A DNA stretch of 64,000 nt. Source: Geosiphon pyriformis uo1 (taxonomy: Eukaryota > Fungi > Glomeromycota). The notes under the pieces were generated by a model. The model had not been told where the DNA came from, did not search any database, and saw only the letters and a program-made list of their open reading frames with translations. Shown piece by piece: positions 7,690-53,344 of this stretch (position 1 is its first letter; each line of letters opens with the position of its first letter). The stretch is taken from the NCBI GenBank assembly GCA_016748015.1, contig JAAOMT010000446.1:200758-264757 (forward strand), read 5' to 3'. The translations under genes were made by a program, and so were the position numbers.

Positions 7690-8646
7690 ATCTGTTTCTT
7701 TGAGGGTTAGGATTACTTCTGCTAGTAAGAAAAATGTGCTGAGTGTTTTAAATTCTGATAAGTTTTTTAATGTTTGTGATAGTTTACTGAAGGTGTGGTC
7801 TGATTGCATTGAGATTTATACAGATGAATTCTTAAAATGTGCTGGTTCTGCTGAAGTGACAAGTGGAGCAGCTGCATACTTTCTGGCTGCAGATGCTGAT
7901 ATTAGAATTAGAATGGCTGGGCTTTTGTCTTCTACTTTGACTGAGTTGCAAGCTGTGGGACTGGCATTGGAATGTGTTTCATCTTTGTGCTTAGTGGTCT
8001 TGTACTTGGATAGTCAAGCTGCAATTGATGTCTGTATCTCTGAGGCTTCTGTTACTATGCTCGACTTCCATAACCAATGTTAGATTGAAAGATTGCATAT
8101 AGATAATCTCCTTGAAAGTAAAAATATTTCTATTAAGTGTGTGAAAATTAAAGATCATTTAGATGTGTTGGGCAATATTAGGGCTAATGCATTGGCTAAT
8201 GAAACAACTTCCTTGTTTTTTTCTATGCTGGTGAGAATTTGGGAGAGGTTTTTGGTCACTAAAAAAACTGCTATATCTGGCAATACTTGTCATTTTTTTT
8301 GAGACTTATACTGGTTGATATGTCATGCCCATTGGGAGGCTAGTCCAGATTTTAATGTAATTTTGGATGTTATGATTAAAAAAATAGATTGGAAGGCTAC
8401 TGCAATGATCTGGCACCCTAATTCACACATGCTTTCTGAATTCACCAGTAGAAAGTCAGCCAATTTGTGCACATACTTGATGAAAGTTATATACAAATGG
8501 CTGCCAATTGTGGTTAGAAAGAGATTGTATAACAAAAGTTATTCTGAAGTATTGTGCTTACTGTGTGGTGAGGTGGAGTTGTCTAATCATGTTTTTATTT
8601 GTTCTGGTAACTCTGGTCTCTGCAGGGACATTTTGGTTAAAGCTGC
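7690..8646 (+). mobile_element. Non-LTR retrotransposon (LINE-1), 5'-truncated, left part: RNase H and C-terminal Zn-binding region of ORF2 (pseudogenised)
   Basis: ORFs 7700-8704 show RNase H motifs (IYTD, ELQAV, YLDSQAAI, KIKDH, GNIRANALA) and CLLCGEVELSNHVFIC. Collinear with LINE-2 ORF2 at 36970-37800. The frame resumes at 28373 after the LTR insertion (LVKAA|EK...). The 5' boundary is approximate. Confidence 0.85.
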
Positions 8647-9629
8647 TGTTACTAATGGTTTTTGGTCTCTTTTTTTAAATGTTGTTAATGTTGATTTGTT
8701 GTGAATTCATGTTTCCAGAAAGTAGTTAGACCTCCAGTAACTGAATTTATCTTCAAATTATCTTCTATAATTTAAACTTGCTGGGCTTATAAGTGGAATA
8801 GCCAATTTTGTGCCAGTTGCTTTATGTAGTTATATTGTAGTAAACGTTAACTCTTTTCTAGGAATTGCTCATCTGGAAGCTCACTAAAAATATGTAGTTA
8901 CTTTGCTGTGAAAGTCAACTCTTCTACAGGAATCTCGTCTGTAGGCTACCCTAATGATTGTAATAAGAAAAAAAAAGAAAAATAAAAGAAATATAAAAGA
9001 AATAGGATTTTATCAAGAGAAACGTTTTTCTATTCAGGCCTGGAGTCACTAACAGTTTACTGAAATTGGTAGCTAATTAATTTCGAAATGTTAGTTGGGT
9101 TTTTGGAGGTTTTTCCAAGTACAATAATTAAAGAATTTGGTTTTTCGAATTATTTGATATTTATTTCTTTTTGTGTATATAGGAATAGTTTTAAGAGATA
9201 AATCTAAAGTAAGATATATTTTCTTGAAGAGAAATGCTCTTCTTTTATATAACTTGTTATAACACTATTCTATGAACTTGAACTTTGCTATTTTCTACAA
9301 TTTCGCTGAACTAAAGATACATTTCGGTGAACTACAAGTTATTTCTGTGAATTATTAGATATTTCGGTGAACTATCAATTATTTTGGCGAATTTCTACAA
9401 ATTTTGGCAAACTTTTGAATGTTACATAGTTCGGAGTATTGCATGATTTGATTATCGCAATTAGGTTACATTTGTGTTGTGTACAAATTGGGTTATTAAT
9501 TAAATGATAATTTCGGACATTTTGCTAATGTAATAAGTGATAATTTGAAACAATAATATATGCTAATTAATGATAGGATTTATAAGATAATTTCATGCTA
9601 AATAATATCTCTAATTTTGTCTGGTAATA
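8647..9629 (-). repeat. 3' LTR of element A
   Basis: Begins tgttac and ends ctggtaata (C>T of gtaaca); adjacent PPT; shares diagnostic bases with 27396-28368. Confidence 0.93.
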
Positions 9630-10317
9630 TAACCTCCTCTTTAAGACTGAGCTCCATCAAAGTCCAAGTACTGTCTGTAATTTTCAGATAATAATCCAAA
9701 ATTATTGAAGAAATTTGGTCTGAAAATTGTTGAAATTTCAGTTTTGTGAGCTTTCCAATGTATTGAATCTTTAAAGACTGTAAAATTGGGTTTTGTAGGA
9801 CATTTTCACAGGTGTAGAATAGATCATAAAGTCTAAGAGCAGCTCTGAGCTTGTAGCGACTGTTTATTGGTCTAGCTGTTGTCTTGAATTCATTGTGGAG
9901 TTGTTTCTGAATAGCTTCTTTTGTGAAGTTTGCTGTTGTAAGTTCCAGTTTCTGTTCGTAGAGTGTTTTTCCAATGTGGAAATATTTATAGATTAGAGGA
10001 TATTCAGTGTTTTTCTCATTGAAACACAGTTGAAATCTTTGTTGAATTGTAGCATTTGGTGGAATACTAATCAGAGTGAGCATTAGGTTTTCTCTTAAAG
10101 CAAGCTTTAAAAGTTTTGGCAGGTGAATTCCAGAATAATTTCTTGTGTTTTTCTTATATGAGTGATATTTTCGTAAATTTGGGGCTAAATTTGTAACTAC
10201 TTTTGTTTGGGTATAATTAATGTGGTTTCCAGTAACAGTAATGGATAATTCGGGTATTGTTTTTAAAGCTAACATTAGTTTTTGGGATAATTGTTGAATG
10301 TTTTGAGGAATAGTCAT
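9598..10317 (-). CDS. ORF3 of element A: 239-aa protein of unknown function, intact frame, overlapping the PPT and U3
   Basis: Open ATG-to-stop frame, highly similar to B ORF3, with homologues in C and D. No evident signal peptide or TM segment. Confidence 0.75.
   Translation of the reverse strand: MTIPQNIQQLSQKLMLALKTIPELSITVTGNHINYTQTKVVTNLAPNLRKYHSYKKNTRNYSGIHLPKLLKLALRENLMLTLISIPPNATIQQRFQLCFNEKNTEYPLIYKYFHIGKTLYEQKLELTTANFTKEAIQKQLHNEFKTTARPINSRYKLRAALRLYDLFYTCENVLQNPILQSLKIQYIGKLTKLKFQQFSDQISSIILDYYLKITDSTWTLMELSLKEEVILPDKIRDII
9630..9645 (-). other. Polypurine tract of element A
   Basis: Minus strand cttaaagaggaggtta directly upstream of the 3' LTR. Confidence 0.85.
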
Positions 10318-10422
10318 TATAAGAGATTTAAAATAAAAGAAAATTATTTTTGGTGTATGGGTTTTTATGTTATTTTTGTTTTGATTGTTTCTAAATTATA
10401 AGGGAATAACTAGTAAAATTAA

Positions 10423-11808
10423 TTAAGTGTTCAGATTGGAAGATTGTTCAATGACAACTATTGGTTCTAAGTTTCAGGAAATATCTTCGAAATTGACTAA
10501 AAGGGAATGTATATCAATTTGTGGAATTAATAGTTCAGAATTGTTTCTGGAATGATAGTGTTTCAAACAATCTCCATGTGCAACTTTTGCTAGGATTTTG
10601 TCATCAAATCTTAGCTTGTATGATCCGTTGCTTAGAACTTCATGGATAAAGAATGGTCCATTCCATTTATTTTCAAATTTTCCACTCCATTGTTTTTTAG
10701 CTTTAGTTCTATGTAAGAGAACTTTGTTTCTGATTTTAAATTCATTGGTGACTGAAGGCAATTTGTTATCATGCCATTCTTTTTGTCAAGCTTGGGAGTG
10801 TTCAATATGGATGGCTGCTATTCGTTGTTTTTCTTTCAATGTGCTTAGCAAAGTGTAGGCTCTTTACTGAAGCATTTCTTGGAAATTGTTTTCATTAATT
10901 GGTTGTGTTGGGTATGTTTCCACTGTGAAACTAATTGGTAATGTTGCTGTCCTTCCATAAGTTAAATCAAATAGTATGTGTTTTGTGGTATCTTGTTTTA
11001 GTGTTCTGTATGCTAGCAACACTAATGAAATAAAGATATCCCACTCTTGCTTAAAATTGGTTGAGACTTTGGCTAATAACTCACACAATGTTCTGTTAAA
11101 ATGTTCTACAAGTCCATTTGTTTGTGGATGGTAGGGCGAAGACAGAGGTCTTTTGACATTGAATTGTTCCCAAATTTTTTGTATCAGGTTGTTCACAAAG
11201 TGTGTTCCCTGATCAGATAAAAGTTCAATTGGACATCTATGTCTACAAATGATGTTTTTATAGATGAAATTTGCTATTGATTTTGCATCTGCTCATTGAA
11301 TGGCTCTGGCTTTGGGCCATTTAGTAAGATAGTCTAAAGCTACTGCAATATAATGGTTTCCTTGAGTAGTAATAGATAGTGGTTCAACTAAATCAATACC
11401 AACTCAGTCAAAGAGTTGTTCAACTTTGATTGGATTTAATGGTTCAGTAGGGCATGTTCCTTTTCTTCTTTGACAACTATCACAAAATTCAACATATTCA
11501 TGAATGTCTTTCCTCATTCGAGGCCAAAAGTAGTATTCTAGTGTTTTTTGGGTGGTGCTATTTTTTCCGAAGTGTGCTAATGAAGAATCTGAGTGTATGT
11601 TGTATAATATGGTCTCTTTTTTCTGTTTTTGTATTAATCTGAGTGGTTTGTTTGGGTTTTTGAAATTTCGATGATAAATAATGTTATTGTGTAGAAAATA
11701 TTGTTTGGCTTATTGTTGTAGTCAATGTTTTTCATCTGGAGACCAATCTGTTGGGATTGTTAATGTTTCCAAATATTGTTTAAGATTATTGTAGTTTTCC
11801 AAATTCAT
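10423..11808 (-). pseudogene. Integrase ORF of element A (HHCC zinc finger, DDE core, GPY/F module), with internal stops
   Basis: YHPQTNGLVEHFNRTL, WNGPFFIHEVLSNGSYKL; own ATG at 11808. Confidence 0.9.
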
Positions 11809-11859
11809 TGTTTGTTGGTTGTTTTAATTGGTTAAGTTGAGTGTTGGTTTTTGTGTTTT

Positions 11860-14162
11860 CTAATCTTGTCTTATTCTGGAGAGACAGTCAACATTGGTGT
11901 AGAGTTTTCCTGGTTTGTGATGTACTATGTATCAATAGTTTGCTAAAAATCCTGTCTATTGGGTTTGTTTTGCATTCAGCTGAGTATTTTTATTCTGAAG
12001 CCATTTGAGTCCAATATTATTAGTAATAATATCAAATTCTTTAGGCCTGAGATAAAAGTTGAAGTGGTGTAGAGCCCAAATTACAGCTGCTGTTTCTAGT
12101 TTTGTGGCAGAATAATTTTTCTCAGCTGGTTTTAATGTTTTGCTGGCATAAGCGATTACTCGCTCATTTCCATTGTCATCTAATTGTGATAGGATAGCAC
12201 CAAAGGCAGTATAAGAGGCATCTGTTGCTAATCGGAATTGGTTGCTGAAATTTGGGTAGGCGAGAATTGGAGCTGTTGTCAGTTTTTCCTTGAGAATTTC
12301 AAAAGCTTTTTGGTGTTTGGTAGTCTATTTGTATTCAACATTTTTGGTGGTGAACTGGTTGAGAAGTTTTGCAATTTTCGAAAATTCTTTGATAAACTTC
12401 TGATAGTAAAATGCTAATCCTATAAATCCTCTTAGTTCTGTAGTGTTTCGAGGAGTTTTGAAGTTTTTGACAACGCTAATTTTTCCAGGGTCTGGTTTGA
12501 TTCCATCTTTACTACCGATATGTCCAAGGAAAGCCAAACTTGTTTTTCCAAAGTAGCATTTTTTGATGTTAAGTTTTAGTTCTGCTTTTTGTAATCATTG
12601 AAAAACTTCTCACAGGTGTTTTAAGTGTAATTCGAACAATAGAAAATAAACATCAGTATTGTCAAAATAAATGACTACTGACTTCCAAAGAAGTCCTTGG
12701 TACACAATATCTATTAATCTCTGAAACATTGCTGGTGCATTGCATAATCCGAAAGGCATTATATTGAACTCGTAATTTCTGCCTTGGATGGTGAATGCTG
12801 TCTTGGGGTGATCTTTGGGATCCATAGCAACTTGCCAGTAACCGCTTTCTAAATCTAGTGTTGAAAAGTATTTGAATTTTTCAAGGGCATCTAACATGTC
12901 ATCAATCTGGGAAAGGGAGTAGGCATCTCCAATTGTAACACTGTTGAGTTGTTGATAGTCAACACAAAATTGGATCTTTCCATTTTTCTTTTTAACTAGC
13001 ACTACAGGTGAAGCCCAAGGACTCATGGAGGGTTGGATGAGCCTATTGTTAAGCATTCATTGTACTTCTTCTCAGATGAATTGGTGGCTTTCTGGAGCAA
13101 CTCAATATGCTTGTTGTCTTCTTGGTTTGGCATCTCCTGTATAAATTTGATGTTGAACCAAATTGGTTCTTCCTAAGTCATTGTTGTTTTCAGCAATGAT
13201 ATTGGCAAATTCTGCAATTAGCTCTTTGAGCTGGGTCTGTTGTTGTGGTTCAAGTTGTCCCATGTTGATTTGAAATAGTTTTTCCATAACAACATGGTAG
13301 TTTTTGGAGCTGGGGTTTGGATTGATTTTTGATAGTGAATGTCCAATAATTTCAGAGAAATCGGGGACTGTTTGGGGTAATTTTTGTTGAAATATATTAC
13401 TGTGAATAACTCCAATTTCTAAATTATTTAATAAAATTATGGGGTAATTATTGGGGTTGTAAAAAGTAACTCGGATTTTCTTTGTTCCTTCTGGAATATA
13501 AATGTTTAGGATTGAAATATTATGTTCCAAGCAGACTTGTTCATTGGATTCAAAAATTTGTTGTGTGGTTGTTGGCTTTGGGCAGATGTAGATTTCCGGA
13601 TGTTCTCCAAAGAGTGAGATGATAATTGGTTGTGGAAGTCTAAGAATCTGGTGGGATTCATTCTGTGTTTTAAGAGCTATATTAACTGGAACTGTGAATC
13701 ATCCAGTTGAACCAAAACCTTGGGTTCCTCTATCACTTTTTCCTAATTGTTGTCTTTAATTGACTAGTTGTAAACCCGAAATGTTGATTAGGGGTAGGTA
13801 AATAGCTTGGGCAATTTTTTCAGCATGTTCAATCTTGAATGGTTTGTCAGTTTCATTTTGAAGCATCACTGTAATGTCTCCAGTATATCCAGCATTGATT
13901 ATTCCTCTTCTGACATTGATTTCTTTGCTTGCCAGAGAGGACCAGGAGGTGATTTGAACCATTGCTTCTAGCAGGATTTCGAGTGCAATTTTGAGGTTGA
14001 TTTTTGTAAGAGATTTGGGTTTGAGAACAAGAGTATCCTTGTCTGAATATCTTAGATCATATCCAGCATCAATTTTGTGTGCTTTTTCGGGTTTTATTTC
14101 TTGTTTGTTGTTGTTGAAGTATTTAAGTTGTAAGACAGGCTGATTTTTGATAAGGTAGATGA
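11860..14162 (-). pseudogene. Element A polyprotein, 3' part: dUTPase, linker, RT, RNase H
   Basis: SPWASPVVLVKKKNGK, FSTLDLESGYWQV, MPFGLCNAP, YFDNTD (YLDD-like), FLGHI, TDAS, IAYASKTL; all in one frame with premature stops. Confidence 0.92.
13705..14135 (-). pseudogene. dut: dUTPase domain of element A
   Basis: AHKIDAGYDL (motif 1), SWSSLASK (RSS motif 2), GIINAGYTGDI (motif 3), KIAQAI (motif 4), RGTQGFGSTG (motif 5). Confidence 0.9.
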
Positions 14163-15151
14163 TGTTACCGGAGGTTTTTGGTTTCTTTTCTGTAATGTTG
14201 TTGATACTTATTTGCTGTGAATTCACGTTTTTAGGAAGTAGTTGAACCTCTAATAACTGAATTTATCTTCAAATTATCTCCTATAATTTGAACTGCTGGA
14301 CTTATAAGTGGAATGGCCAATTCCGTGCCAGTTGCTTTATGTAATTTGTAGTTACATTGTAGTAAATATCAACTCTTTCCCAGGAATTGCTTGTCTGGAA
14401 GCTCACTAAAAATGTGTAGTTACTTTGCTGTGAAAGTCAACTCTTCTACAGGAATCTTGTCTGTAGGCTACCTTAATGATTGTAATAAAAAAAAAAAAGA
14501 AAAATAAAAGAAGTGTAAAAGAAATAGGATTTTATCAAGGGAAACGTTTTCTATCTAGGCCTGAAGTCACTAACAGTTTACTGAAATTGGTAGCTAATCA
14601 ATTTCAAAATGTTAGTTGGGTTTTGAGGATTTTTCTAAGTGCAATAATTTAAAAAATTTGGTTTTTCGAATTATTTGATATTTATTTCTTTTTGTGTATA
14701 TAAGAACGGTTTTGAGAGATAAATCTAAAGTAAGATACATTTTCTCGAAGAGAGAAGCTCTTCTTTTATACAATTTGTCATAACACTATTCTATGAACTT
14801 GAACTTTGCTATTTTCTACAATTTTGCTGAACTAAAGATACATTTTAGCAAACTACAAGTTATTTCTATGAACTATTAGATATTTCAGTGAACTATCAAT
14901 TATTTCGGCAAATTTCTATAAATTTCGGCAAACTTTTGAATGTTACATAGTTTGGGGTTTTGCATGATTGATTATCACAATTAGGTTACATTTGTGTTGT
15001 GTACAATTTGGGTTATTAATTAAATGATAATTTCAGACATTCTTTGCTAATGTAATAAGTGATAATTTAAAACAATAATATATGCTAATTAATGATAAGA
15101 ATTATGAGATAGTTTTATGCTAAATAATATCTCTAATTTCGTCTGGTAACA
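14163..15151 (-). repeat. 3' LTR of element B
   Basis: tgttacc...ctggtaaca, followed by the PPT complement taacctcctcctcaag (15152-15167). Confidence 0.93.
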
Positions 15152-15839
15152 TAACCTCCTCCTCAAGACTGAGCTCCGTCAAAGTCCAAGTACTGTCTGT
15201 TATTTCCAGATAATAATCCAAAATTATTGAAGAAATTTGGTCTGAAAATTGTTGAAATTTCAGTTCTGTGAGCTTTTCAATGTATTGAATCTTCAAAGGT
15301 TGAAAAATTGGGTTTTGTAGTACAATTTTACAGGTGTGAAATAGGTGATAAAGTCTAAGAGCAGCTCTAAGCCTGTAGCGACTGTTTGTTGATCCAGCTG
15401 TTGTCTTGAATTTGTTGTGGAGTTGTTTCTGAATAGCTTCTTTTGTGAGGTTTGCTGTTATAAGTTCCAGTTTTTGTTCATAGAGTGTTTTTCCAATGTG
15501 AAAATATCTATAGATTGGAGGATATTCGGTGTTTTCCTCATTGAGACACAGTTGAAGTTTTTGTTGAATTGTAGCATTTAGTGGAATACTAATCGGAGTG
15601 AGCATTAGGTTTTCTTTTAAAGCAAGCTTTAAAAGTTTTGGCAGGTAAATTCCAGAATAACTTCTTGTGTTCTTCTTATATGAGTGATATTTTCGTGAAT
15701 TTGGGGCTAAATTTGTAACTACTTTTGTTTGGGTATAATTAATGTGGTTTCCAGTAACAGTAATGGATAATTCGGGTATTGTTTTTAAAGCTAACATTAG
15801 TTTTTGGGATAATTGTTGAATGTTTTGAGGAATAGTCAT
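15120..15839 (-). CDS. ORF3 of element B: ~239-aa protein of unknown function, intact frame
   Basis: MTIPQNIQQL...LPDEIRDII*; homologue of A ORF3. Confidence 0.75.
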   Translation of the reverse strand: MTIPQNIQQLSQKLMLALKTIPELSITVTGNHINYTQTKVVTNLAPNSRKYHSYKKNTRSYSGIYLPKLLKLALKENLMLTPISIPLNATIQQKLQLCLNEENTEYPPIYRYFHIGKTLYEQKLELITANLTKEAIQKQLHNKFKTTAGSTNSRYRLRAALRLYHLFHTCKIVLQNPIFQPLKIQYIEKLTELKFQQFSDQISSIILDYYLEITDSTWTLTELSLEEEVMLPDEIRDII

Positions 15840-15955
15840 TATAAGCAATTGAAAAAATAAAAAATTATTTTTGGTGTATGGGTTTTTATGTTATTTTTTG
15901 TTTTGTTTTTGTGAGATTGTTTCTAAATTATAAGAGAATAACTAGTAAAATTAAA

Positions 15956-17341
15956 TTAAGTGTTCAGTTTAGAAAGTTGTTCAATAACAACTATTGGTTC
16001 TAAGTTTCGGGGAATATCTTTAGGACTAACCAAAGGAGAATGTGTACCAATTTGTGGAATTAGTGGTTCAGGATTGTTTCTGGAATAATAGTGTTTCAAA
16101 CGATCTCCATGTGCAACTTTTGCTAGAATTTTGTCATCAAGTCTTAGCTTGTATGATCCGTTGCCTAGAACTTCATGGATAAAAAATGGTCCATCCCATT
16201 TATTTTCAAATTTTCCACTCCATTGTTTTTCAGCTTTAGTTCTGTGTAAGAGAACTTTGTTTCCAATTTTGAATTTATTGGTGACTGAAGGCAATTTGTT
16301 ATCATGCCATTCTTTTTGTTGAGCTTGGGAGTGTTCAATATGGGTGGCTGCTATTCGTCATTTTCCTTCTAATGTGCTAAGCAGAGTGTAGGCTCTTCCT
16401 TGAAGCATTTCTTAGAAATTGTTTTCATCAATTGGTTGTGCTGGGTATGTTTCTACTGTGAAACTAATTGGTAACGTTGCCGTCATTCCATAAGTTAAAT
16501 CAAATGATGTGTGTTTCGTGGTATCTTGTTTTAATGTCCTATATGCTAGTAACACTAATGGAATAAAGAGATCCCATTCTTGCTCAAAATCGGTTAAAAC
16601 TTTAGCTAATGACTCACACAATGTTCTGTTAAAACGTTCCACAAATCCGTTTGTTTGTGGATGGTAGGGCGAAGACAGAGGTCTTTTGACATTAAATCAT
16701 TCACAAATTTCTTGTATCAGGTTGTTCACAAAGTGTGTTCCCTGATTGGATAAAAGTTTAATTGGACATCCATGTCTACAAATGATGTCTTCGTAGATGA
16801 AATTTGCTACTGATTTTGCATCTGCTCGTTGAATGGCTCTGGCTTCAGGCCATTTAGTAAGATAGTCTACAGCTACTGCAATATAACGGTTTCCTTGAGT
16901 GGTGATAGATAATGGTCTGACTAAATCGATACCAACTCTGTCAAAAGGCTGTCCAACTTTGATTGGGTTTAAAGATTCTGTAGGGCAAGTTTCTCCTTTT
17001 CTTTGACAACTATCACAAAATTCGACATATTTGTGAATGTCTTTTCTCATTTGAGGCCAAAAGTAGTATTCTAGTGTTCTTTGGGTGGTGCTATCTTTTC
17101 TGAAGTGTGCTGATGAAGGATCTGAGTGCATATTGTATAAAATGGTCTCTTTTTCCTGTTTTTGTATTAATCTGAGTGGTTTGGTTGGGTTTTTGAAATT
17201 TCGATGATAGATAATGTTGTTGTGTAGAAAATATTGTTTGGCTTGTTGTTGTAACCAATGGTTTTTATCTGGAGACCAATCTGTTGAAATTGTTAATGTC
17301 TCCAAATATTGTTTGAGATTGTTGTAGTTTTCAGGGTTCAT
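15956..17341 (-). pseudogene. Integrase ORF of element B
   Basis: Starts MNPENYNN; H-x6-H...CDSC zinc finger; GIDLV, VDYLTKWPEA, LLSNQGTHF, ERFNRTL; GPF module; a few internal stops; no chromodomain. Confidence 0.92.
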
Positions 17342-17393
17342 TGTTTGTTGTTTTGATGCTGTTAATTCAAATGGGTGTTGATTTTTTTTTTTT

Positions 17394-20300
17394 CTAATCT
17401 TGCCTCATTCTTGAGAAACAATCAACGTTGGTGTGGAGTTTTTCTGGTTTGTGGTATACGATATATTAGTAATTAGCTAAAAATCCTGTTCATCAAGTTT
17501 GTTTTGTGTTTAGCTAGATGTTTTTGTTTTGAAGCCATTTAAGTTCAATATTATCAGTGATAATATCGAATTCTTTGGGTCTGAGGTAAAGATTGAAGTA
17601 ATGTAGGGCCCAAATTACTGCTGCAGTTTCTAATTTTGTTGCGAGATAGTTCTTTTTGGCTGGCTTTAATGTTCTACTAGCATAAGCAATTACTCGCTCA
17701 TTTCCATTGTCATCTAACTGTGATAGGATGGCACTAAAGGCAGTATAAAAAGCATCAGTTGCTAACTGGAATCGGTTGTTGAAGTCTGGATAGGCGAGGA
17801 TTGGAGCTGTTGTGAGTTTTTTCTTAAGTATCTCGAAGGCATTTTGGTGTTCTTTTGTCCATTTGTATTCGACATTTTTAGTAGTGAGCTGGTTAAGGAG
17901 TTTTGCAATTTCTGAGAATCCTTTGATGAATTTTTGGTTATAGGATGCTAATCCAATAAATCTTCTTAATTCTGTGATATTTCATGGAGTTTTGAAGTTT
18001 TTGATAATACTAATTTTTCCGGGGTCTGGTTTAATTCCATCTTTGTTAACAATGTGACCAAAAAAAGCTAAACTTGTTTTTCCGAAGTAGTATTTTTCAA
18101 TGTTCAGTTTCAATCCTGCTTTCCGTAATTGTTGAAAAACTTCTCGCAGGTAAATTAAATATAGCTCGAAAGATGGTGAATAAACATCAGTGTTATTAAG
18201 ATAAACTACTACTGATTTCCAAAGGAGACCTTTGTAAACAACATCCATAAGTCTTTGGAATGTTGCTGGTGCATTGCATAATCCAAAAGGCATTACATTG
18301 AACTCGTAATTTCCTCCTTAAGTAGTGAATGCTGTTTTGGAGTGGTCTTTGGGATCCATAGCAACTTGCCAGTATTCACTCTTTAAATCTAATGTTGAAA
18401 AGTATTTGAACTTTCCAAGAGCATCCAACATGTCATCAATTCGGGGAAGAGGGTAGGCATCCCCAATGGTGACAATGTTGAGTTGTCAGTAATCAACACA
18501 AAATCATATCTTTCCATTTTTCTTTTTAACTAAGACCACAGGTAAGGCCCATGAGCTCATTGATGGTTGAATAAGCCCATTGTTAAGCATCCATTGTACT
18601 TCTTCTCAGATAAATTGGTGACTTTCTGGGGCGACTCGGTAGGCTTGTTGTCGCCTTGGTTTGGCATCTCCTGTATAGATTTGGTGTTGAACCAAATCAG
18701 TTCTTTCTAAGTCATTGTTGTTTTCGGCGAAGATGTCAGCAAATTCTGCAATTAGCTCTTTGAGCTGGGTCTGTTGTTGTGGTTCAAGTTGTTCTATGTT
18801 GATTCGAGATAGTTTTTCCATGACAACATGGTAGTTTTCAGAGCTAGGGTTTGGGTTGATTTTTGGTAGTGAATGTCTAATAATTTTAGGGAAATCGGGG
18901 ACTGTTTGGGGTAATTCTTGTTGAAATATATTACTGTGAATAATTCCAATTTCTAAATTATTTAATAAAATTATGGGGTAATTATTGGGGTTGTAAAAAG
19001 TAACTCGGACTTTCTTTGTTCCCTCTGGAATATAAATGTTTGGGATCAAAATATTATGTTCCAAGCAGACTTGTTCATTAGACTCAAAAATTTGTTGTGT
19101 GGTTGTTGGCTTTGGACAAATGTAGATTTCCGGATGTTCTCCAAAGAGTGAGATGATAATTGGTTGTGAAAGTCTGAGAATCTGGTGAAATTCGTTCTGT
19201 GTGTTAAGAGCTATATTAACTAGAACTGTGAATTGTCCAGTTGAACCAAAACCTTGGGTTCCTCTATCACTTTTTCCTAATTGTTCTCTTTAATTGACTA
19301 GTTGCAAACCCGAAATGTTGATTAAGAGTAGGTAAATAGCTTGGGCAATTTTTTCAGCATGTTCGATCTTGAATGGTTTGTCAGTTTCATTTTGAAGCAT
19401 CACTGTTATGTCTTCAGTATATCCAGCATCAATTATTCCTTCTCTGACATTGATTCCTTTGCTTGCCAGAGAGGACCGGGAGGCAATTTGAATCATTGCT
19501 CCTGGCGGGATTTCGAGTGCAATTTTGAGATTGATTTTTGTAAGAGATTTGGGTTTGAGAACAAAAGTATCCTTGCCTGGATATCTTAGGTCATATCCAG
19601 CATCAATTTTGTGTGCTTTTTTGGGTTTTATTCCTTGTCCGTTGTTGTTAAAGTATTTAAGTTGTAAGACAGGCTAATTTTCAATAAGGTAGATGAATGT
19701 TGTTTTAATTTCTTTCATTTCTTCAGGTTCTCCAAATTCAATTTCATTCTCATCATTTTTGCTGGGCAAGGAGATACTAAGAGCATAGCATTCAGGACAC
19801 CATTGTTTATCACAAGGCATAATGCATTCTTCACATAGCCTAATGTTCATTTGCTCTAATCATTGAATTTGAGCTTTTTGGGTCGGGTAGGTGTGACTTG
19901 CAATTTGGTGGTAAACTTCTACTTCATCTTCGTAATTGAATCCAGCTAATTCTATAGTGTATTGAATGTATTCTGCTTCCTTCATTTGACAAACATCTTC
20001 TTTGGTAGCTCTATTAATTAGTGCCATTGCTAAGTCGAAAATCATCTCGGCATCATAAGGGTAGTGATAAAGTTTGTTGAGAGCACTGTTGTATGCTGCA
20101 TTAAAGGGTGTTCCTCTTTTTACTTTTTCTGAAATTGATAAAGCATATTGGCAGGTCTGATTGCAGACGCCTCCTCTCATTGCTACATCAATCTAATTGT
20201 ATTCTTCCGGTAGCATATCTCCACAAGTCAAACAAGGGGTGTTGTCCCATTTTCCATTCTTTTTTATTAGATGGCCCCATTGTTCTCTGTGGCAAACCTT

Positions 20301-23030
20301 GCAGTAATAACAAGTATGATTCTTATATTCTTTTTAGGTGAAATGCAGGCTTCCATTGACGATAGTTTCTTGTGGCAGTCCTTACATTTAAGAGGAATAT
20401 AGGGGCATTGTTTTCTTGGTTTGGGTTTTGAGTAAGGTATATTCCATTCAGAGATTTCAGGTTTAGTGTGTGGGGTAAAATGTTCTTGTTCTGTTTCATC
20501 AGCCCAGTTGGACGTTGATCCAAGAGCCATGAATGTTTCGATTATTGGTTTTTCTTCTTCTGGTTCAAATTCAAAAGCTAGGGCTTTTTCAGAGTGTTTG
20601 TTGAATATACCACAAATGGCAGATACCTGGGCGTGTTATCCTTGGTAGGAGATTGTTAACTCTTGTGTTTCCCAATTCAGATTAGCATTGGCTTTTTGAA
20701 GCCAATCATTTCCGACAAGAGCTTGGTATTGGGATGCGTCCATTACAAGAACTTTGACTGGAATGGTAATTCCATCAATAGTGAATGGAAAATTGTCAAT
20801 TTCTCCTACTAGTGTCTTTTTCATGCCATCAGCAGTGACAATTACTGTTTGAGCTGGTCAGTCAACATTTCTTTTCAACTGTTGCATTAACTGGTAGGTA
20901 ATAATGCTTCTGGTGGATCCACTGTCTAGGATCAAGTGAATTGGCTTTCTTTTTACTTCAGCTTCTGTGTATATTGCAGTGATGGCTTTTTGCTTATTAG
21001 CTGCTGCATTGCTAAGCAAGAATGGTGATTCATTTGCTTCAAATTCAAAAGGAAAGATATCAGAAAGATTGGCGTTTTCAGCAATTCAGGCTGGTGGAAT
21101 AGTGATGTGGTTATGAGAAGGGTTTCATTGTTGTTGTGCTACAGCTCTATCTTCCGGGAGTACAATATGGTGAAAATCCTGTTCTTCTGGCATTGTTAAA
21201 TAACTGGGTTGAGTGTGGTAGTGGTTGGGTCTTGGTTGAGTGGTATTTTGAGGAACCAATTGGTTGTTCGAACTGATTCTACTGTTGTTTACTTGGTATC
21301 AGTTTTGTGGTGTAAATTGATTTTGTGTAATCAGTCTTCAAGCAGGTACTTGATAATGTTATGTGGATGGTTGTTGGTATTGCTGTTGGATTGGTTGTGG
21401 GGCGGGCTGATAATAGTTATTTTGGTATTAGGGTCTTGGTAAATAGTAAGCTGGTGGTGATGGTTGATAATAAGATTGCTGTGGTGGAGAGTAACATTGA
21501 TTACCCCTATTTTGTTGGTCTCGTTGCAGCTTTCTGCAATCTCTTTTCCAGTGGTCAGAGATTCTACAGTAATGGCAATTCTGGGACTGGTTATTGAAAA
21601 GTGGTGCAAAGTTATTTTGATTTCGTCTTTGGAGTGGTTGATATTTTTGGGGTTGTTGTTGTTGTTGGTTGGTAAAATAGTTTTTGACCTTCTTTGTGAG
21701 TTGGTCAATTTTTTCTTCGGCTGCTGAGCTGGTTTCTCCAATTGCCAAATTTACAAGTTTTGTACAATTGGCTTCTTCCATGGCCATTTTGTATCTTTTT
21801 GCATGCTGTATGACAGAGTTTAAATCTTCTGGTGTGTGTGGGCGAACTTTTTTAATTAGTTTATCTTTTAGACCAGCAATAAATTAATCCAAAATTTGAG
21901 CATCGGAATAATAATTGTTTGTCTCGAGTTGGCAAATCCGTCTAAGAAGTTTGTTGAATTTCCCAATATAAGTCATAACGAATTCGGAGGGTTCTTGTTT
22001 GATATTTCGAAAACAATTGTGAAAAGTGATGGAGGTATTATTGTCGGTGAACTGTTCAAGGAAGGCTGCTTTGAAAGCATTCTAATCATTGAATGGGGCA
22101 GCAAGGTTTTCAAACCATTCTTCTGCTGTTCCTTTGAGAAAGTAGGGAATTGTTCTTAACATTCTGGCAGCATTCTATTTATTTGCATCTCCAGCTTTAA
22201 TAACTTGGTCAAGTCATTCTTGGGGACTGGTCTCAATATCTTTTCCATTGAATTCAAGAATTTTTGCAATGTATGTTGTCATTTCGTCTTCTTCATTTTT
22301 ACTGTCTATTGATTCTTCTTCAGTTATTTCAGAGTTGTTTTCTTCATTTGCTGCTGTCTCAGAGTGTTCACTTTGATTTTCAGCTAGAAAATCAAGAAGA
22401 TTGGAACTAGTTTGAAGGGGTTTTTGTTGTCTGGTGGGACTTCTGAGTGATGTAAAATCTTCTGGTCTTGCAAATCAATTCAAGGGTGAATTAGGTGTTT
22501 GTGCTTGTGCAAGTGAAGCTGGAAAAGGTGTGATAGTAAGTAAAAGTTTTGAGCTGGTTCCTTGTTCAGGTGTTTGTAGATGTTTGAATAATATTTTGGA
22601 AGTATTGGGTGTTGTGTGAACAGGTCAGTTATCTTTTTGTCTTTTGTTGCTACTGGTTTCAGGTTCAGATTCGAGTTCAAAGACAAATTGTGCGTTTGCA
22701 GGATATTTTTCTTCGCAAAATCAAATAATATTATAATCGAGTTCCTCAAAATAAGTAGCGCAAGCTTCAGCACTAATGTTTTCTGATTCAGTGTTAGAAT
22801 AGTGTAGTATGTTCTCAAGAAAATCTCTTTTAACTATTGTAATGTTATAGTTCCCAAAGAGGTAGTTATTGATTTGATTTTCAATATATTGAAAAAGTGT
22901 TTTCTTGAAAGCTATAATTTCATCGCGTATTTCAAATTGTTGTTTGCAGTGTGTGTAAATTGATTGATAGTACTCTAAGATTGTGATGTCTGAGGCGGTT
23001 GCCACTTTGAATTTGTTGTTGTGTTATTTC
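17394..23030 (-). pseudogene. Element B ORF1 polyprotein: N-terminal extension, Gag (CA-like and CCHC knuckle), aspartic protease, Cys-rich domain, dUTPase, RT, RNase H
   Basis: CHYCRISDHWKRDC, LILDSGS, GIIDAGYTEDI, GFGSTG, MPFGLCNAPATFQR, YLNNTD; one frame except a single 1-nt deletion near 20330; ends RMRQD*. Confidence 0.92.
19237..19665 (-). pseudogene. dut: dUTPase domain of element B
   Basis: DAGYDL, ASRSSLASKG, GIIDAGYTEDI, KIAQAI, RGTQGFGSTG. Confidence 0.9.
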
Positions 23031-23035
23031 TGTAA

Positions 23036-23045
23036 GAGAGCACCA
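23036..23045 (-). other. Primer-binding site of element B (TGGTGCTCTC)
   Basis: Starts with TGG, 2 nt after the 5' LTR end; identical core in A. The cognate tRNA was not identified. Confidence 0.75.
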
Positions 23046-23047
23046 AA

Positions 23048-24030
23048 TGTTATCAGAAGTTTTTGGGTCTCTTTTCTGTAATGTTGTTGATACTTATTTG
23101 CTGTGAATTCACGTTTTCAGGAAGTAGTTGAACCTCCAATAACTGAATTTATCTTCAAATTATCTCCTATAATTTGAACTGCTGGGCTTATAAGTGGAAT
23201 GGCCAATTCCGTGCCAGTTGCTTTATGTAGTTACGTTGTAGTAAACGTCAACTCTTTCCCAAGAATTGCTCGTCTGGAAGCTCACTAAAAATGTGTAGTT
23301 ACTTTGCTGTGAAAGTCAACTCTTCTACAGGAATCTTGTTTGTAGGCTACCCTAATGATTGTAATAAGAAAAAAAAAGAAAAATAAAAGAAGTGTAAAAG
23401 AAATAAGATTTTATCAAGGGAAACGTTTTCTATCCAGGCCTGGAGTCTCTAACAGTTTACTGAAATTGGTAGCTAATCAATTTCAAAACATTAGTTGGGT
23501 TTTGAGAATTTTTCCAAGTGCAATAATTTAAAGAATTTGGTTTTTCGAATTATTTGATATTTATTTTTTTTTGTGTGTATAAAAATGGTTTTAAGAGATA
23601 AATCTAAAGTAAGATACATTTTCTCGAAGAGAGAAGCTCTTCTTTTATACAACTTGTCATAACACTATTCTATGAACTTGAACTTTGCTATTTTCTACAA
23701 TTTCGCTGAACTAAAGATACATTTCGGCGAACTACAAGTTATTTCTGCGAACTATTAGATATTTCAGTGAACTATCAATTATTTCAGCAAATTTCTATAA
23801 ATTTCGGCGAACTTTTGAATCTTACATAGTTTGGGGTTTTGCATGATTGATCATCATAATTAAGTTACATTTGTGTTGTGTACAAACTGGGTTATTAATT
23901 AAATGATAATTTTGGACATTCTTTGTTAATGTAATAAGTAATAATTTGAAACAATAATATATGCTAATTAATGATAGGAATTATGAAATAGTTTCATGCT
24001 AAATAATATCTCTAATTTTGTCTGGTAACA
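23048..24030 (-). repeat. 5' LTR of element B
   Basis: tgttatc...ctggtaaca; PBS adjacent; shares diagnostic bases with 14163-15151. Confidence 0.93.
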
Positions 24031-24034
24031 ATGG

Positions 24035-27000
24035 ATGTTGTTTCAATTTCTTCCGTTGCTTTAAGTTCTCCAAATTCAATTTCATTCTCATCATTTTCGC
24101 TGGGCAAGGGGATATTAAGAGCGTAGTATTCAGGACATCACTGTTCATTACAAAGCATAATGCATTCTTCACATAGCCTAATGTTCATTTGCTCTAATCG
24201 TTGAATTTGAGCTTCTTGGGTTGAGTAGGTGTGACTTACAATTTGGTAGTAGATTTCTACTTTGTCTTCATAATCAAATCCAGCTAATTCCATTGTGTAT
24301 TCATATATTCTGCTTCCTTCATTTAATGAACATCTTCTTTGGTAGCTTTATTAATTAATGCCATTGCTAGGTCAAAAATCATCTTGGCATCATGGAGGTA
24401 GTGATAAAGTTTGTTGAGTGCACTGTTGTATACTGCATTAAAGGGTGTTCCTCTTTTTACTTTTTCTGAAATTGATAAAGCATATTGGCAGGTCTGATTA
24501 CAGACTCTTCCTCTCATAGCTACATCAATCCAATAGCATTCTTCCGGTAGCATATCTCCACAAGTCAAACAAGGAATGTTGTCCTATTTTCCACTTTTTT
24601 TTATTAGATGGCCCCATTGTTCTCTGTGGCAAGTCTTGCAGTAATAACAAGTATGATTTTCATATTCTTCTTCAGGTGAAATGCAGGCTCCCATTGATGA
24701 TAGTTTCTTGTAACAGTCTTTACATTTAAGGGGAATATAGGGGTGTTGTTTCTTTGGTTCAGGTTTTGAGTAAGGGATATTTTATCCAGAGGTTTCGGAT
24801 TCAGAATGTGGGGTAAAATGTTCTTGTTCTGTTTTATCGGCCCAGTTAGACATTGATCTAAGAGCCATGAATGTTTCAATAAGGGGTTTTTCCTCTTCCA
24901 GTTCGAATTCAAAAGCCAGGGCTTTTTCAGAGCATTTGTTGAATATACCACAAGTGGCAGATACCCGGACGTGTTGTCTTTGGTAGAAGATTGTTAACTC
25001 TTGTGTTTTCCAATTCAGATTAGCATTGGCTTTTTGAAGCCAATCATTTCTGACGAGAGCTTGGTACTGAGGTGTGTTCATTACAAGAACTTTGACTGGA
25101 ATGGTGATTCTGTCAAGAGTAAACAAAAAATTGTCAATTTCTCTTACTGGGGTCTTTTTCATGCCATCGGCAGTGACGATTACTGTTTGAGCTGGTCGGT
25201 CAACATTTCTCTTTAATTGTTGCATTAACTAATAGGTGATAATGCTTCCAGCAGATCCACTGTCTAGGATCAAGCAAATTGTCTTTCCTTCGACTTCTGC
25301 TTCAGTGTACATAGCCATGATTGCTTTTTGTTTATTGGTGGCTGCATTGCTAAGCAGGAATGGTGACTCATTTGCTTTGAACTCAAAAAAGAATATATCT
25401 GAAAGGTTAGCATTTTTAGCGATTCTGGCTGGTAAGATTGTGGTGAGAGTATAGGAAGGGTTTTGTTGTTGTGCTGCAGTTCTATCTTCTGAGGGTACAA
25501 TATGGTAAAAATCCTGTTCTTTTGGCATTGTTAAATAACTGGGTTGAGTATGGTAGTGGTTGGGTCTTGGTTGAGTGGTATTTTGAGGAATCAATTGGTT
25601 GTTCAAACTGATTCTACTGTTGTTTACTTGGTATCAGTTTTGTGGTGTAAATTGATTTTGTGTAATCAGTCTTCAAGCAGGTACTTGATAATGTTGTGTG
25701 GGTGGTTGTTGGTATTGCTGTTGGATTGATTGTGGGGCGGGCTGATAATAGTTATTTTGGTATTGGGGTCTTGGTAAATAGTAAGCTGGTGGTGATGGTT
25801 GATAATAAGATTGCTGTGGTGGAGAGTAACATTGATTACCCCTATTTTGTTGGTCTCGTTGCAGCTTTCTACAATCTCTTTTTCAGTGGCCAGAGATTCC
25901 ACAGTAATGGCAATTCTGGGACTGGTTATTGGAAAGTGGTGCAAAGTTATTTTGATTTCGTCTTTGGGGTGGTTGATATCTTTGGGGTTGTTGTTGTTGT
26001 TGGTTGGTAAAATAGTTTTCGACCTTCTTTGTAAGTTGGTCAATTTTTTCCTCGGCTGCTGAACTGGTTTCTCCAATTGCCAAATTTACAAGTTTTGTAC
26101 AATTGGCTTCTTCCATGGCCATTTTGTATCTTTTCGCATGCTGTATGGCCGAGTTTAAATCTTCTGGTGCGTGTGGGCAAACCTTTTTAATTAGTTTATC
26201 TTTTAGACCAGCAATAAATTGATCCAAAATTTGAGCATCAGAATAATAATTGTTTGTTTCGAGTTGGCAAATCCGTCTGAGAAGTTTGTTGAATTTCCCA
26301 ATATAAGTCATAACAGATTCGGAGGGTTCTTGTTTGATATTTCGAAAACGATTGTGAAAAGTGATGGAGGTATTATTGTCAGTGAACTGTTCAAGGAAGG
26401 CTGCTTTGAAAGCATTCCAATCATTAAATGGGGCAGCAAGGTTTTCAAACCATTTTCCTGCTGTTCCTTTGAGAAAGTAGGGAATTGTTTTTAACATTCT
26501 GGCAGCATTCCATCCATTTGCATCTCCAGCTTTAGTAACTTGGTCAAGCCATTCTTGGGGACTGGTTTCAATGTCTTTTCCATTAAATTCAGAAATTTTT
26601 GCGATGTATGTTGTCATTTCGTCTTCGTCATTTTCATTGTCTATTGATTCTTCTTCAGATATTTCAGGTTCGTTTTCTTTGTTTGCTGCTGTCTCAGAGT
26701 GTTCACTTTGATTTTCAGCTAAAAAGTCAAGGAGATTGGAACTAGTTTGAAGAGGTTCTTGTTGTCTGATGGGACTTCTAAGTGATGTAAAATCTTCTGG
26801 CCTTGCCAATCAATTCAAAGGTAAATTAGGCATTTGTGCTTGTGCAAGTAAAGCTGAAAAAGGTGTGATAGTAAGTGGAAGTTTTGAACTGGTTTCTTGT
26901 TCAGGTGTTTGTAAATTGTTGGCAGTTGTTTTTGGTGTCTTTGGAGTATTTGGGGTAATATTTGAGTGTTGTTTCAGTTTTTGTTTGCCTTTGTTGCTTG

Positions 27001-27394
27001 TTTCTGTTTCTGATTCAAAGTCAATAGATTATTTAGACTGCACTGGATATGTTTTTTCACAGTATTTGATAATGTTAAAATTAAGTTCGTGAAAGTAAGT
27101 AGCAAGTGTTTCGCTGTTAAGGTCTTCAGTTCCCAACTGTAAATAATGTGCTAGATTATTGTAAAGGTTGCTTTTGACTTCTGAGATATTGTAATTTTCA
27201 AAAAGATAATTGTTGATGCAGTTTTCAATGTATTGGTATACTGATTTCTTGACAACTTCAATTCCGTCTGGAATGTTGAATCTTTGCTTGCAGTGGGTAT
27301 AAATTGATTGGTAATACTCTAGAGTTGATGTGTCTGATGTGGTTGCCACTTTGAATTTTGTTGTTGCTGTGTTATTTCCATGGGAGAGCACCAA
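24035..27394 (-). pseudogene. Element A polyprotein, 5' part: N-terminal extension, Gag, zinc knuckle, protease, Cys-rich domain
   Basis: ORFs 27029-27394, 25883-26809, 25229-25606, 24782-25225 and 24323-24568 share one frame; QEWLDQV, IKQEPSESVMTYIGKF, CHYCGISGH, LILDSGSAGSII. Confidence 0.92.
27384..27393 (-). other. Primer-binding site of element A (TGGTGCTCTC)
   Basis: Minus strand reads ...gtaaca tt tggtgctctcccatgg. Confidence 0.75.
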
Positions 27395-27395
27395 A

Positions 27396-28368
27396 TGTTA
27401 CCAGTGGTTTTTGGTCTCTTTTTTTAAATGTTATTAATGTTGATTTGTTGTGAATTCACATTTCCAGGAAATAGTTGAACCTCCAGTAACTGAATTTATC
27501 TTCAAATTATCTCCTATAATTTGAACTTGCTGGGCTTATGAGTAGAATGGCCAATTCCGTGCCAGTTGTTTTATATAGTTACATTGTAGTAAATGTCAAC
27601 TCTTTCCCAGGAATTGCTTGTCTAGAAGCTCACTAAAAATGTGTAGTTACTTTGCTGTGAAAGTCAACTCTTCTACAGGAATCTTGTCTGTAGGCTACCC
27701 TAATGATTGTAATAAGAAAAGAAAAGAAAAATAAAAAAAATAGAATTTTATCAAGGAAAACGTTTTTCTATTCAAGCTTGGAGTCACTAACAGTTTACTG
27801 AAATTGGTAGCTAATCAATTTCGAAATGTAAGTTGGATTTTTGGGGGTTTTTCTAAGTACAATAATTAAAGAATTTGGTTTTTCGAATTATTTGATATTT
27901 ATTTCTTTTTGTGTGTATAGGAATGGTTTTAAGAGATAAATCTAAAGTAAGATACATTTTCTTGAAGAGAGATGCTCTTCTTTTATACAACTTGTCGTAA
28001 CACTATTCTATGAACTTGAACTTTGCTATTTTCTATAATTTTACTGAACTAAAGATACATTTCGGCAAATTACAAGTTATTTTTGCAAACTATTAGATAT
28101 TTTAATAAACTATCAATTATTTTGGCGAATTTCTACAAATTTTGGCAAACTTTTGAATGTTACATAGTTCGGGGTATTGCATGATTTGATCATCACAATT
28201 AGGTTACATTTGTGTTGTGTACAAATTGGGTTATTAATTAAATGATAAATTTCGGACATTTTGCTAATGTAATAAGTAATAATTTGAAATAATAATATAT
28301 GCTAATTAATGATAGGATTTATAAGATAATTTTATGCTAAATAATATCTCTAATTTCGTCTGATAACA
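27396..28368 (-). repeat. 5' LTR of element A
   Basis: tgttacc...tgataaca followed by TSD ctgc. Confidence 0.93.
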
Positions 28369-43532: not shown

Positions 43533-44374
43533 TGTTATGCGATAGTTTTCTTGTTATATTTAATTGCCGATATTCTGTTTTAATTGCAATCAGTCTTTCG
43601 TGAGTTCCTCAATTCTATTTGTGTGATAATGTCACAATGTAAGTTATTTTTCAATTCCTAATTGTTGTGTGTGTTTATGTACTCCTTTTTAGAGGCTGAA
43701 CTGAAATCTACCCACTGTTTGGGGTCTTCTCTGAAGCTATTCTTGAAATTGCCTAATGTGTTTCTCTAATCTAGAAACACAGAAGGTTAATGGTCTTTAG
43801 CACTTTTCCTAATTCTTACAATAAAGCTTTTATCAATTAGTAACAACGTGAATAATCTTGATCAAAAATTATTCTTTCAAGGGATTTAGTTGATAAATGA
43901 TAGTTTCATTCAATAAATAATACAAGTAAATTTCTGAATACTTTGGGTTGTGATAATTCAGTTTTAAATATTTTTTTTCATTTCTTTTTGATTTAAAGAT
44001 TTCTTGGGATATTTAATTTGAAAGTATGATTTAAAGTGAAGTTTGTTGGATAAAATTGGATCTATTGCTTAATAAATTATGATTTTTATTACTTGATTCT
44101 CTTTTCTCAATATTAAAACTACTGTATATATACATGTTTGTAATTCTACGAGAAAACACATTGTAATACTTTCTTTTTGATATTTCAATCTGGTGTTTGC
44201 TGCTATTACCAGTTGGTGTTGGCTGCTATTGTGAACTGGTGCTTGCCACTATTGCAAGATGGTGTTTGCTACTATGTTAATCATTACTTTTCTAAGATTA
44301 TTACTGTGCTATATTATGATTGAATAGTTTATATTATTTTTATGATTCTTTTGCTAAATTCTTAAACCATAACA
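43533..44374 (-). repeat. 3' LTR of element C
   Basis: tgttatg...ccataaca; near-identical to 53345-54217. Confidence 0.92.
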
Positions 44375-45056
44375 TTATTCCTTCCTTTTAAGATTAAGCT
44401 CTGTTGAAATCAAAGTTAATTTCTTTATTAAATTTTAAGTTACTATAGTGGTTCAATACTGTGTTATTAATTTGTTGTTGTAATTCTTAAAATTGCAAGT
44501 TGGTAAGTCGTCCAATACTGTTGATTGTTATTATATTTATGGTTGGATCCAACAATAGTTTGTAACAGTTTTCAAATGCTTTGAAAATTCTATAAACTGT
44601 TTTTGAATGAAATGTAGTGTTGGTTTTTCCAATGAAAGGTTCTAATAGTTGGATAGTTGTTTTGTCAAACACTCTAGTTGAGTCTTTTGAGTATAATGTT
44701 TGTATGTTCAAGTGCTTTCCTAGTTGATAATAACAGTAGTTAATTGGAAATTTCGTTTTCAAGTTGTTAAATGTGTCTGGTGTTAATTCACTTATTTTTA
44801 TTTCTTCCATTATTAGTGTATTGCCCAATGCTATCTCTAATTTTTCAATAACTTTGCTGATAAATTTGTTGTTATGTTTGGTAATATTATATAATTTAAA
44901 ATTATGTTCTTTTCTTGTTTTTGGATTTTTTATTGTTCTTTTTATGTATGTTATTTTGGAGCTATTAACTGTGATTTCCAGATCGGATTTCAATTGTTGT
45001 AAGCTTTCAATTAATTGTTGAGTTATATTGTTGATGTTTTCTGGAATAAGTATTAT
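44375..45056 (-). pseudogene. ORF3 of element C (homologue of A/B ORF3)
   Basis: IPENINNITQQL vs IPQNIQQLSQKL; PINYCYYQLGKHL vs PPIYRYFHIGKTL; IGRLTNLQF vs IGKLTKLKF; the start appears mutated ATG>ATA. Confidence 0.75.
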
Positions 45057-45139
45057 TGTTTTAATTTTGACTGCTATTTTGGAATCTTTGCATGCATTTT
45101 TATGGTTGTTAAATCATTTTTGCTGTGATCTAAGATTAA

Positions 45140-46519: not shown

Positions 46520-46550
46520 TGTTGTTGTGATGGGTGGGTTGGTGATTTTT

Positions 46551-53300: not shown

Positions 53301-53332
53301 TATTATTTCCTTTTTGATTTTCTTTCCTCATA

Positions 53333-53342: not shown

Positions 53343-53344
53343 AA

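Follow-up and report, generated by a model that had tools for sequence, protein, structure and literature searches.

A Ty3/Gypsy-like retrotransposon lineage of Glomeromycota with integrase in an open reading frame of its own

In canonical Ty3/Gypsy retrotransposons integrase is cleaved from the Pol polyprotein, which is treated as a basic feature of long terminal repeat (LTR) retroelements because it couples the synthesis, stoichiometry and packaging of the enzyme. Errantiviruses are gypsy elements with three open reading frames (ORFs) and an env, and foamy viruses express Pol separately. Tat elements carry an additional RNase H in a separate ORF (PMC13468544). Integrase remains in Pol in all three. 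A gypsy-like integrase of about 400 residues that stands alone and starts from a YPYY motif is known from the Ginger1 DNA transposons, which have TGTNR ends and 4-bp CG-centred target duplications; YPYY also occurs in Athila/Tat-related gypsy groups (Bao et al., 2010; PMC2836005). Here we describe LTR elements in a window of 64,000 nucleotides from Geosiphon pyriformis uo1 (contig JAAOMT010000446.1 of assembly GCA_016748015.1, positions 200,758–264,757), in which ORF1 stops just behind RNase H, integrase opens as an ORF of its own and a third ORF follows. The layout apparently represents an undescribed Ty3/Gypsy lineage. In the open-access literature covered, no LTR element of this or another clade is described as having its integrase in an ORF apart from Pol, although the supplements of PMC2864245, PMC3248453 and PMC11952901 could list such structures.

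The window holds nested LTR elements stacked on the minus strand, every copy of which is dead. Elements A and B belong to a single family, B being nested in the dUTPase region of A, and element C represents a second family; the reverse transcriptase and RNase H (RT-RH) regions of the two families are 55% identical. The junctions and the ORFs behind them are as follows, in positions of the window.

11806–11862, minus strand: element A junction; RIRQD, TAG (11862–11860), a 51-nt spacer with a second in-frame stop, ATG at 11808
17394–17396, minus strand: ORF1 stop of element B; RMRQD and then TAG, after the last RNase H motif
17342–17393, minus strand: element B spacer; 52 nt, A/C-rich, ATG-free and unstructured, followed by ATG at 17341
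46517–46553, minus strand: element C junction; RMRHT, TAA (46553–46551), a 31-nt spacer, ATG at 46519
10423–11808, minus strand: element A integrase ORF; 461 codons, 7 internal stops
15956–17341, minus strand: element B ORF2, integrase; 461 codons with a YPYY-type N-terminus, HHCC, DDE core and GPY/F-SH3
45140–46519, minus strand: element C integrase ORF; 459 codons, 3 internal stops
9598–10317, minus strand: element A ORF3; 239 aa, open
15120–15839, minus strand: element B ORF3; 239 aa, open, reaching across the polypurine tract and into the 3' LTR; longer version of a helical protein family that is lineage-wide
44487–45050, minus strand: element C ORF3 remnant; 28% identical to that of B, start codon lost

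The initial annotation had reported that pol stops a few codons past the last RNase H motif in A, B and C (at 11862, 17396 and 46553) and that integrase opens at an ATG preceded by ACA (11808, 17341 and 46519) behind spacers of 51, 52 and 31 nt. Both observations hold, and the ATGs of B and C are out of frame with ORF1. For element D, where a KQI-TAA end near 43205 had been proposed, the KQI-stop is legible but there is no start codon, and the copy is so decayed that it lends weak support only. The A/C-rich character ascribed to the spacers applies to A, B and C (83–94% A+C, against about 60% on the sense strand of element B) but is not general, as junctions between RNase H and integrase span −11 to 727 nt, with T-rich or structured ones among them. 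The suggestion that a similar spacer precedes ORF3 did not survive: that spacer is longer (about 105–115 nt) and more T-rich. The ORF3 of C has lost its start codon. ORF3 of both A and B terminates inside the 3' LTR. The integrase copy of element B is dead, with three internal stops and Asn in place of the second catalytic Asp. DNA run X1, covering 17300–17450 with 376 contig pieces at a 1% threshold, lists zero variants at the B stop codon and a single ATG-to-ATA change at about 2%, a check that rests on contigs, which lose rare variants.

Outside loci came from a scan of metagenome contigs with core integrase patterns, 80 of at least 559 confirmed loci being used; domain and ORF3 counts refer to a total of 83 outside loci. 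RNase H is visible upstream of integrase in 37 of the metagenome loci, of which 33 are split and 4 fused; the split loci take in two near-duplicate pairs and one decayed locus. The four fused loci are 34–37% identical to the query, and some split loci are equally distant. The scan of viral contigs gave three weak loci only and was uninformative. Wherever the match extends to integrase position 1 (50 loci), an ATG stands there. A search with the element B integrase gave 1247 proteins of similar length, and 102 of the best 120 have Met at profile position 1. The residue after this Met is Asp, Glu or Asn in 102/102 (P0001–P0120), a pattern known from substrates of NatB N-acetylation, although a helix cap would also explain it. 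Since the protein search was limited by length, the split was tested at the DNA level. The same junction place in two families at 55% RT-RH identity and in 33/37 outside loci is more than chance, in line with the earlier argument against decay, and the stand-alone integrase ORF with a third ORF behind it is supported well past the window.

The lineage is carried by six named Glomeromycota, namely Rhizophagus irregularis, R. clarus, Cetraspora pellucida, Entrophospora sp., Paraglomus brasilianum and Geosiphon, and its host fungi are likely all of the mycorrhizal type. A gene-model piece with 85% identity points to Geosiphon pyriformis or a close relative as the likely host of the window. R. irregularis has several intact integrase copies of 420 aa; examples of intact copies in strain DAOM 197198 are GET57239.1 and GET63490.1. 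Intact relatives keep the split. It is hardly credible that the stop arose by decay, or that readthrough or frameshifting overrides it to give a normal Pol polyprotein. The many decay stops of the window copies would suit that explanation, and so would the existence of truly fused relatives; against it stand the intact split relatives, the Met fixed at integrase position 1 and the second in-frame stop in A. The non-overlapping spacers (26 junctions: 23 loci plus A, B and C, excluding L064, a near-duplicate, and L074, which has no ATG) are spread over the three frames as 11, 6 and 9, and all three stop codons occur. Decay, readthrough and frameshifting were rejected because the spacers fall in all frames. 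These comparisons argue that the split integrase is there by design, conserved and not a product of decay.

Fusions were sought by searching for longer proteins, and six of the best 120 matches have 44% identity or more. Five are NCBI gene models. Three of them contain RT-RH (P0121, P0122 and P0124); the others are P0125 and P0128. The sixth, P0123 (44%), is a true single ORF fusing RT-RH, integrase and ORF3; other truly fused relatives are P0129, P0137 and P0140, at 35–39%. The RT-RH-integrase fusions of P0121, P0122 and P0124 could speak for a spliced RNA that joins a 5' leader to integrase or removes the junction and so restores the fusion. These models, however, cut the junction at three different places and drop both the last RNase H motif and the integrase N-terminus, so that their joins read as predictor artefacts or invented introns. 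A conserved splice acceptor was rejected as well, since 13 of the 18 spacers of up to 100 nt, including those of A and C, lack a YAG, and we regard splicing as very improbable.

How, then, might integrase be expressed? Reinitiation is known for ORF2 of LINE-1. Termination-reinitiation after long ORFs is further described for caliciviruses and influenza B (in both with a TURBS, a site upstream of the stop that binds ribosomes), the fungal viruses HvV190S and CHV1, SART1 and the TAV of cauliflower mosaic virus; stop-start overlaps of TAATG or ATGA form mark viral reinitiation, and SART1 is a retrotransposon precedent (PMC10275272). On balance we lean towards a reading in which integrase and ORF3 are translated from full-length RNA by ribosomes reinitiating after the upstream stop. 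After termination of ORF1 some small subunits would stay bound; they would back up a few bases at overlap junctions or, in the window, scan 25–100 unstructured bases until they met the first strong AUG. A 37-nt structure ahead of that AUG would hold or recruit the ribosome in one subclade, and the ORF3 start would be reached by the same reinitiation. Integrase output would thus lie below that of Gag and RT, with no protease release. Within the shared cytoplasm, binding to RNA, Gag or DNA would bring the enzyme to the particle or to the new cDNA. Since the retrotransposon cycle is completed in one cell, integrase could join in trans.

Reinitiation is favoured in that overlaps are tight, short spacers hold few ATGs, small ORFs occur in chains and the same junction types recur before ORF3. 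In eight loci (seven distinct) the stop and the start overlap, always by 11 nt or less, with TAATG twice and ATGA twice; among 100 readings taken in the two alternative frames at 50 integrase starts, 30% would overlap so little. The 18 spacers of up to 100 nt contain 4 ATGs in 893 nt, compared with 18 expected at coding density, and ATG density is 4–8 per kb in the 60 nt upstream of integrase compared with about 20 per kb elsewhere. A purine occupies −3 in 36/42 distinct integrase starts and G occupies +4 in 32/39. Small ORFs in the long spacers of L014 and L037 end overlapping the integrase ATG, and integrase-ORF3 junctions overlap in L011 (−4) and L016 (−8). In the subclade of L037, L014, L038 and L006 an ATG lies 3–32 nt after the RNase H stop, and the 521-nt spacer of L037 holds two ORFs in series, 83 and 85 aa long, which may represent an additional gene or an extension that has been broken.

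Several points weigh against reinitiation. In the overlap test related elements enter as independent cases, and the tested loci are themselves part of the null. Some of the ATG deficit follows from the low G content of the spacers; 15 ATGs are seen where base composition predicts 29. Eight spacers measure 156–727 nt, seven of them with ATGs, and L006, L040 and L075 fit a separate mRNA better, as the scattered ATGs of their spacers misfit simple scanning. TURBS reinitiation works within 20–30 nt (PMC10275272), a range that the window spacers of 31–52 nt exceed, and the five-base, 18S-complementary TURBS core was found upstream of none of the 26 stops scanned, all of them at non-overlapping junctions. 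Reinitiation at these junctions would therefore not be of the TURBS type. The strong Kozak context and the 60-nt ATG-poor zone would also fit a subgenomic mRNA with a short 5' leader.

Such subgenomic mRNAs, which would arise at a promoter inside the RNase H region or be processed from the genomic RNA, are a possible but unlikely source of integrase and ORF3. The confinement of the ATG deficit to about 60 nt and the long spacers with ATGs are both in their favour, and two serial reinitiations after a 5-kb ORF would yield little ORF3. Overlaps that never exceed 11 nt and the chained small ORFs are left unexplained by them, and no shared promoter-like motif was noticed, although no formal search was made. 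Reinitiation, the reading we prefer, resembles the known systems in its UAAUG and AUGA overlaps, in RNA structure nearby and in the lower downstream output seen there, which we infer here. It differs from them in that the TURBS core was not found, spacers frequently exceed 30 nt, the structure comes after the stop and directly ahead of the AUG, and the product is the integrase of an LTR element. The mechanisms may differ between subclades.

The structure in question is a 37-nt sequence shared by several loci directly ahead of the integrase ATG. A model built from 8 loci gave 16 rows at E<0.01 in 317 kb, each of them upstream of integrase; 15 are distinct, and 7, of which one is weak, were not in the training set. 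In an independent MAFFT alignment of the 15, pairing is kept in 96.7% of cells and compensatory changes occur in 7 of 10 pairs, a signal higher than in any of 500 shuffles or any slid control. Support is good for the outer helix and for the inner one, which has five pairs; no compensatory change is seen in the two-pair middle helix. Rfam gave no match in 12 loci, and the motif pattern has no exact match in viral contigs and prokaryote genomes. The window lacks a copy (best E 2.1), its spacers being unstructured. The motif-bearing elements form one clade (92%). In the two of these loci long enough to show it, ORF1 continues for 280–310 aa past RNase H. Long extensions with Cys/His clusters were seen in L018 (2420–3271), L023 (3500–4438) and L040 (4945–6705), without a Pfam match in the two scanned, and a WW..EP motif is common to the tails of other loci bearing the RNA motif.

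The RNA element ends 3–15 nt before the AUG in 14 of the 15 rows with a computed gap (32 nt in L018), and its position suggests that it may act in starting or recruiting ribosomes at the integrase AUG. That placement would also suit internal ribosome entry on full-length RNA, independent of ORF1 and mediated by the structure in this subclade or by the A-rich spacers of the window, which are 52–62% A and unpaired. However, the structure is limited to one clade, and 10/33 split junctions (overlapping, or separated by 5 nt or less) have no real spacer, which makes internal entry improbable. The element is located 21–142 nt past the upstream stop, so it is not translated through. Were integrase made from subgenomic mRNA, to which this location lends some support, the structure would mark or protect the 5' end.

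The elements agree with Ty3/Gypsy (Metaviridae, for example Ty3) in having LTRs with TGT...ACA ends, a primer binding site, a polypurine tract, a short target duplication and the Pfam domain order Gag, protease, RT, RNase H and integrase. Among solved structures, Ty3 Gag-Pol gives the integrase profile its best match (E 1.8e-52). As in the YPYY-bearing Athila/Tat-related integrase group, HHCC, DDE and GPY/F are conserved together with the four YPYY positions. They depart from Ty3/Gypsy in the integrase ORF with its fixed Met, a conserved unnamed ORF3, the lack of a chromodomain (no match in the B or C integrase, none among the Pfam domains of the best 120 homologs) and the junction RNA structure of one subclade. 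Because the junctions are split in the window (3/3 legible) and in the outside loci, we file the elements as a non-canonical lineage. With errantiviruses, Tat elements and foamy viruses they have in common either a further ORF behind integrase or an enzyme whose expression is separate from that of Gag, but ORF3 here is a helical protein of 145–240 aa that matches neither env nor RNase H. Pfam scans of the pol, integrase and ORF3 of element B gave no additional RNase H of the Tat kind. As for an envelope glycoprotein, 20 ORF3 members have no Pfam match at E<0.01, and a 148-aa member is modelled as all-helical; membrane segments were not separately examined.

The likeness to Ginger1 lies in the stand-alone gypsy-like integrase starting at YPYY, the TGTNR ends and 4-bp duplications, which are centred on CG, CA or TG in the four that are legible. 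Ginger1, by contrast, has terminal inverted repeats, a C-terminal protease domain and no RT (PMC2836005), and the present elements have LTRs and RT. Capture of the integrase from a Ginger element was rejected because RT and integrase trees share the same subgroups. Two Ginger-like candidates, P0229 and P0168 (judged by domains and names), fall outside the split group in the integrase tree. In this quick tree of 76 rows the distribution of split and fused forms needs only 2 changes, and P0123 groups with three overlap-junction elements (99% SH-aLRT), for which reason its fusion is best read as an apparent, secondary re-fusion. As to a single origin of the split, holding the split elements together with two gene models and P0123 is not rejected with RT-RH (p-AU 0.63; 40 of 124 rows), the deep branches being weak. 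A 50-row RT tree places plant elements inside the group that holds most split elements (97% SH-aLRT), in a quick tree that carries a long-branch warning. All trees were built from database matches only.

The initial annotation had also counted the dUTPase and the Cys-rich domain among the marks of the lineage. Neither was detected in any of the 83 outside loci, and they are family traits only; a dUTPase is already known in fungal gypsy elements (PMC2864245). ORF3 extends further. Its profile matches downstream of integrase in 21/83 loci, 8 of them in the training set, in none of the four fused loci, and at the C-terminus of P0123 (E 1.7e-27). The long ORF3 of the window is linked to this family through L002 and a profile comparison (probability 74%, E 2.7e-5), which gives moderate support for its membership. 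The family comprises 551 clusters at 50% identity. The model of the 148-aa member is confident (pLDDT 96.6); ORF3 has no solved sequence relative and no Atlas match, and Foldseek gave none at E<=0.001 (best Z 4.5), which is not proof of a new fold. ORF3 occupies the usual place of the chromodomain and is fused to integrase in P0123; on these grounds it is likely an accessory module of integrase, perhaps for targeting.

The remaining architecture of the window elements is listed below.

8647–28368, minus strand: element A, whole; LTRs at 27396–28368 and 8647–9629, 92.8% identical; target duplication GCAG; split by B at 14163–24030
23048–24030, minus strand: element B 5' LTR; TGT...ACA ends and 94.6% identity with the 3' LTR; a primer binding site of tRNA type comes next
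14163–15151, minus strand: element B 3' LTR; 4-bp target duplication CCAT/TCAT within element A
17394–23005, minus strand: element B ORF1; Gag extension, capsid (Met 22282), protease (20935), Cys-rich region, dUTPase (19601), RT (18212) and RNase H
43533–54217, minus strand: element C, whole; LTRs at 53345–54217 and 43533–44374, about 92% identical; target duplication ACAG/GCAG
41800–43300, minus strand: element D; heavily decayed RNase H end and integrase, stop legible, start codon not

ORF1 of element B is interrupted by stops and one frameshift; comparison of A with B, whose frameshifts lie at different places, gives a single frame for Gag, protease, Cys-rich region, dUTPase, RT and RNase H. 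Just past the primer site all three elements have a GTG in a shared AAA-GTG-G context (minus strand 23005, 27349 and 53262). Stops lie in frame a short way upstream in B and C, and an in-frame ATG is absent for about 240–290 codons. ORF1 may start at a non-AUG codon, the GTG at 23005 being a possible start in B. Among relatives, Gag and pol are in one frame in L023, as in the window, and in different frames or separated by a stop in L003, L007, L020, L028 and L040. In the Gag of relatives the capsid is preceded by a long N-terminal extension that contains a CxxC motif (L001, 3226–3780; L016, 2501–3211; L023, 6804–7436; L014, 4112–6079), with no Pfam match in the three scanned. The Cys-rich region lies between protease and dUTPase in both families (minus strand 19761–20450, 24060–24800 and 50000–50700) and has no meaningful Pfam match.

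LTR differences within the window copies are nearly all transitions, and CpG is depleted. The legible target duplications (14159–14163/24031–24034, 8643–8647/28369–28372, 48060–48064/49073–49076 and 43529–43533/54218–54221) are consistent with a CpG-centred target. Element C is interrupted by a solo LTR related to A/B at 48064–49072; further such solo LTRs lie at 32035–33003 (minus strand) and 38239–39225 (plus strand). An unannotated pair of segments, 7761–8605 and 36917–37761, is 66% identical. Short 12-bp tandem repeats occur in very AT-rich DNA at both ends of the LTR stack (1212–1343 and 60061–60216), and 59379–59666 matches 63707–64000 inverted; these repeats are possibly the ends of another element hosting the stack.

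Taken together, we tentatively propose, as a possibility short of a probable one, a Glomeromycota-wide LTR branch in which polycistronic translation replaces integrase processing, with a new class of RNA element, a new accessory family and a likeness to a Ginger1 precursor. If this is true, Ginger1 DNA transposons could arise by keeping the integrase ORF alone. LTR elements make up 41.2% of the Geosiphon genome (PMC11952901), and the lineage is plentiful in symbiotic fungi that matter to crops. A pipeline built around a single Pol ORF would take its intact elements for broken ones or insert introns that do not exist, which is apparently what happened in three NCBI models. The dozens of natural junction variants and the compact covarying RNA element are candidates for bicistronic expression in fungi. 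A successful lineage without a Pol-linked integrase shows that the coupling of integrase to Pol is dispensable, and it raises the questions of how integrase would reach the cDNA without a polyprotein and how a fungal ribosome would read a second and a third long ORF.

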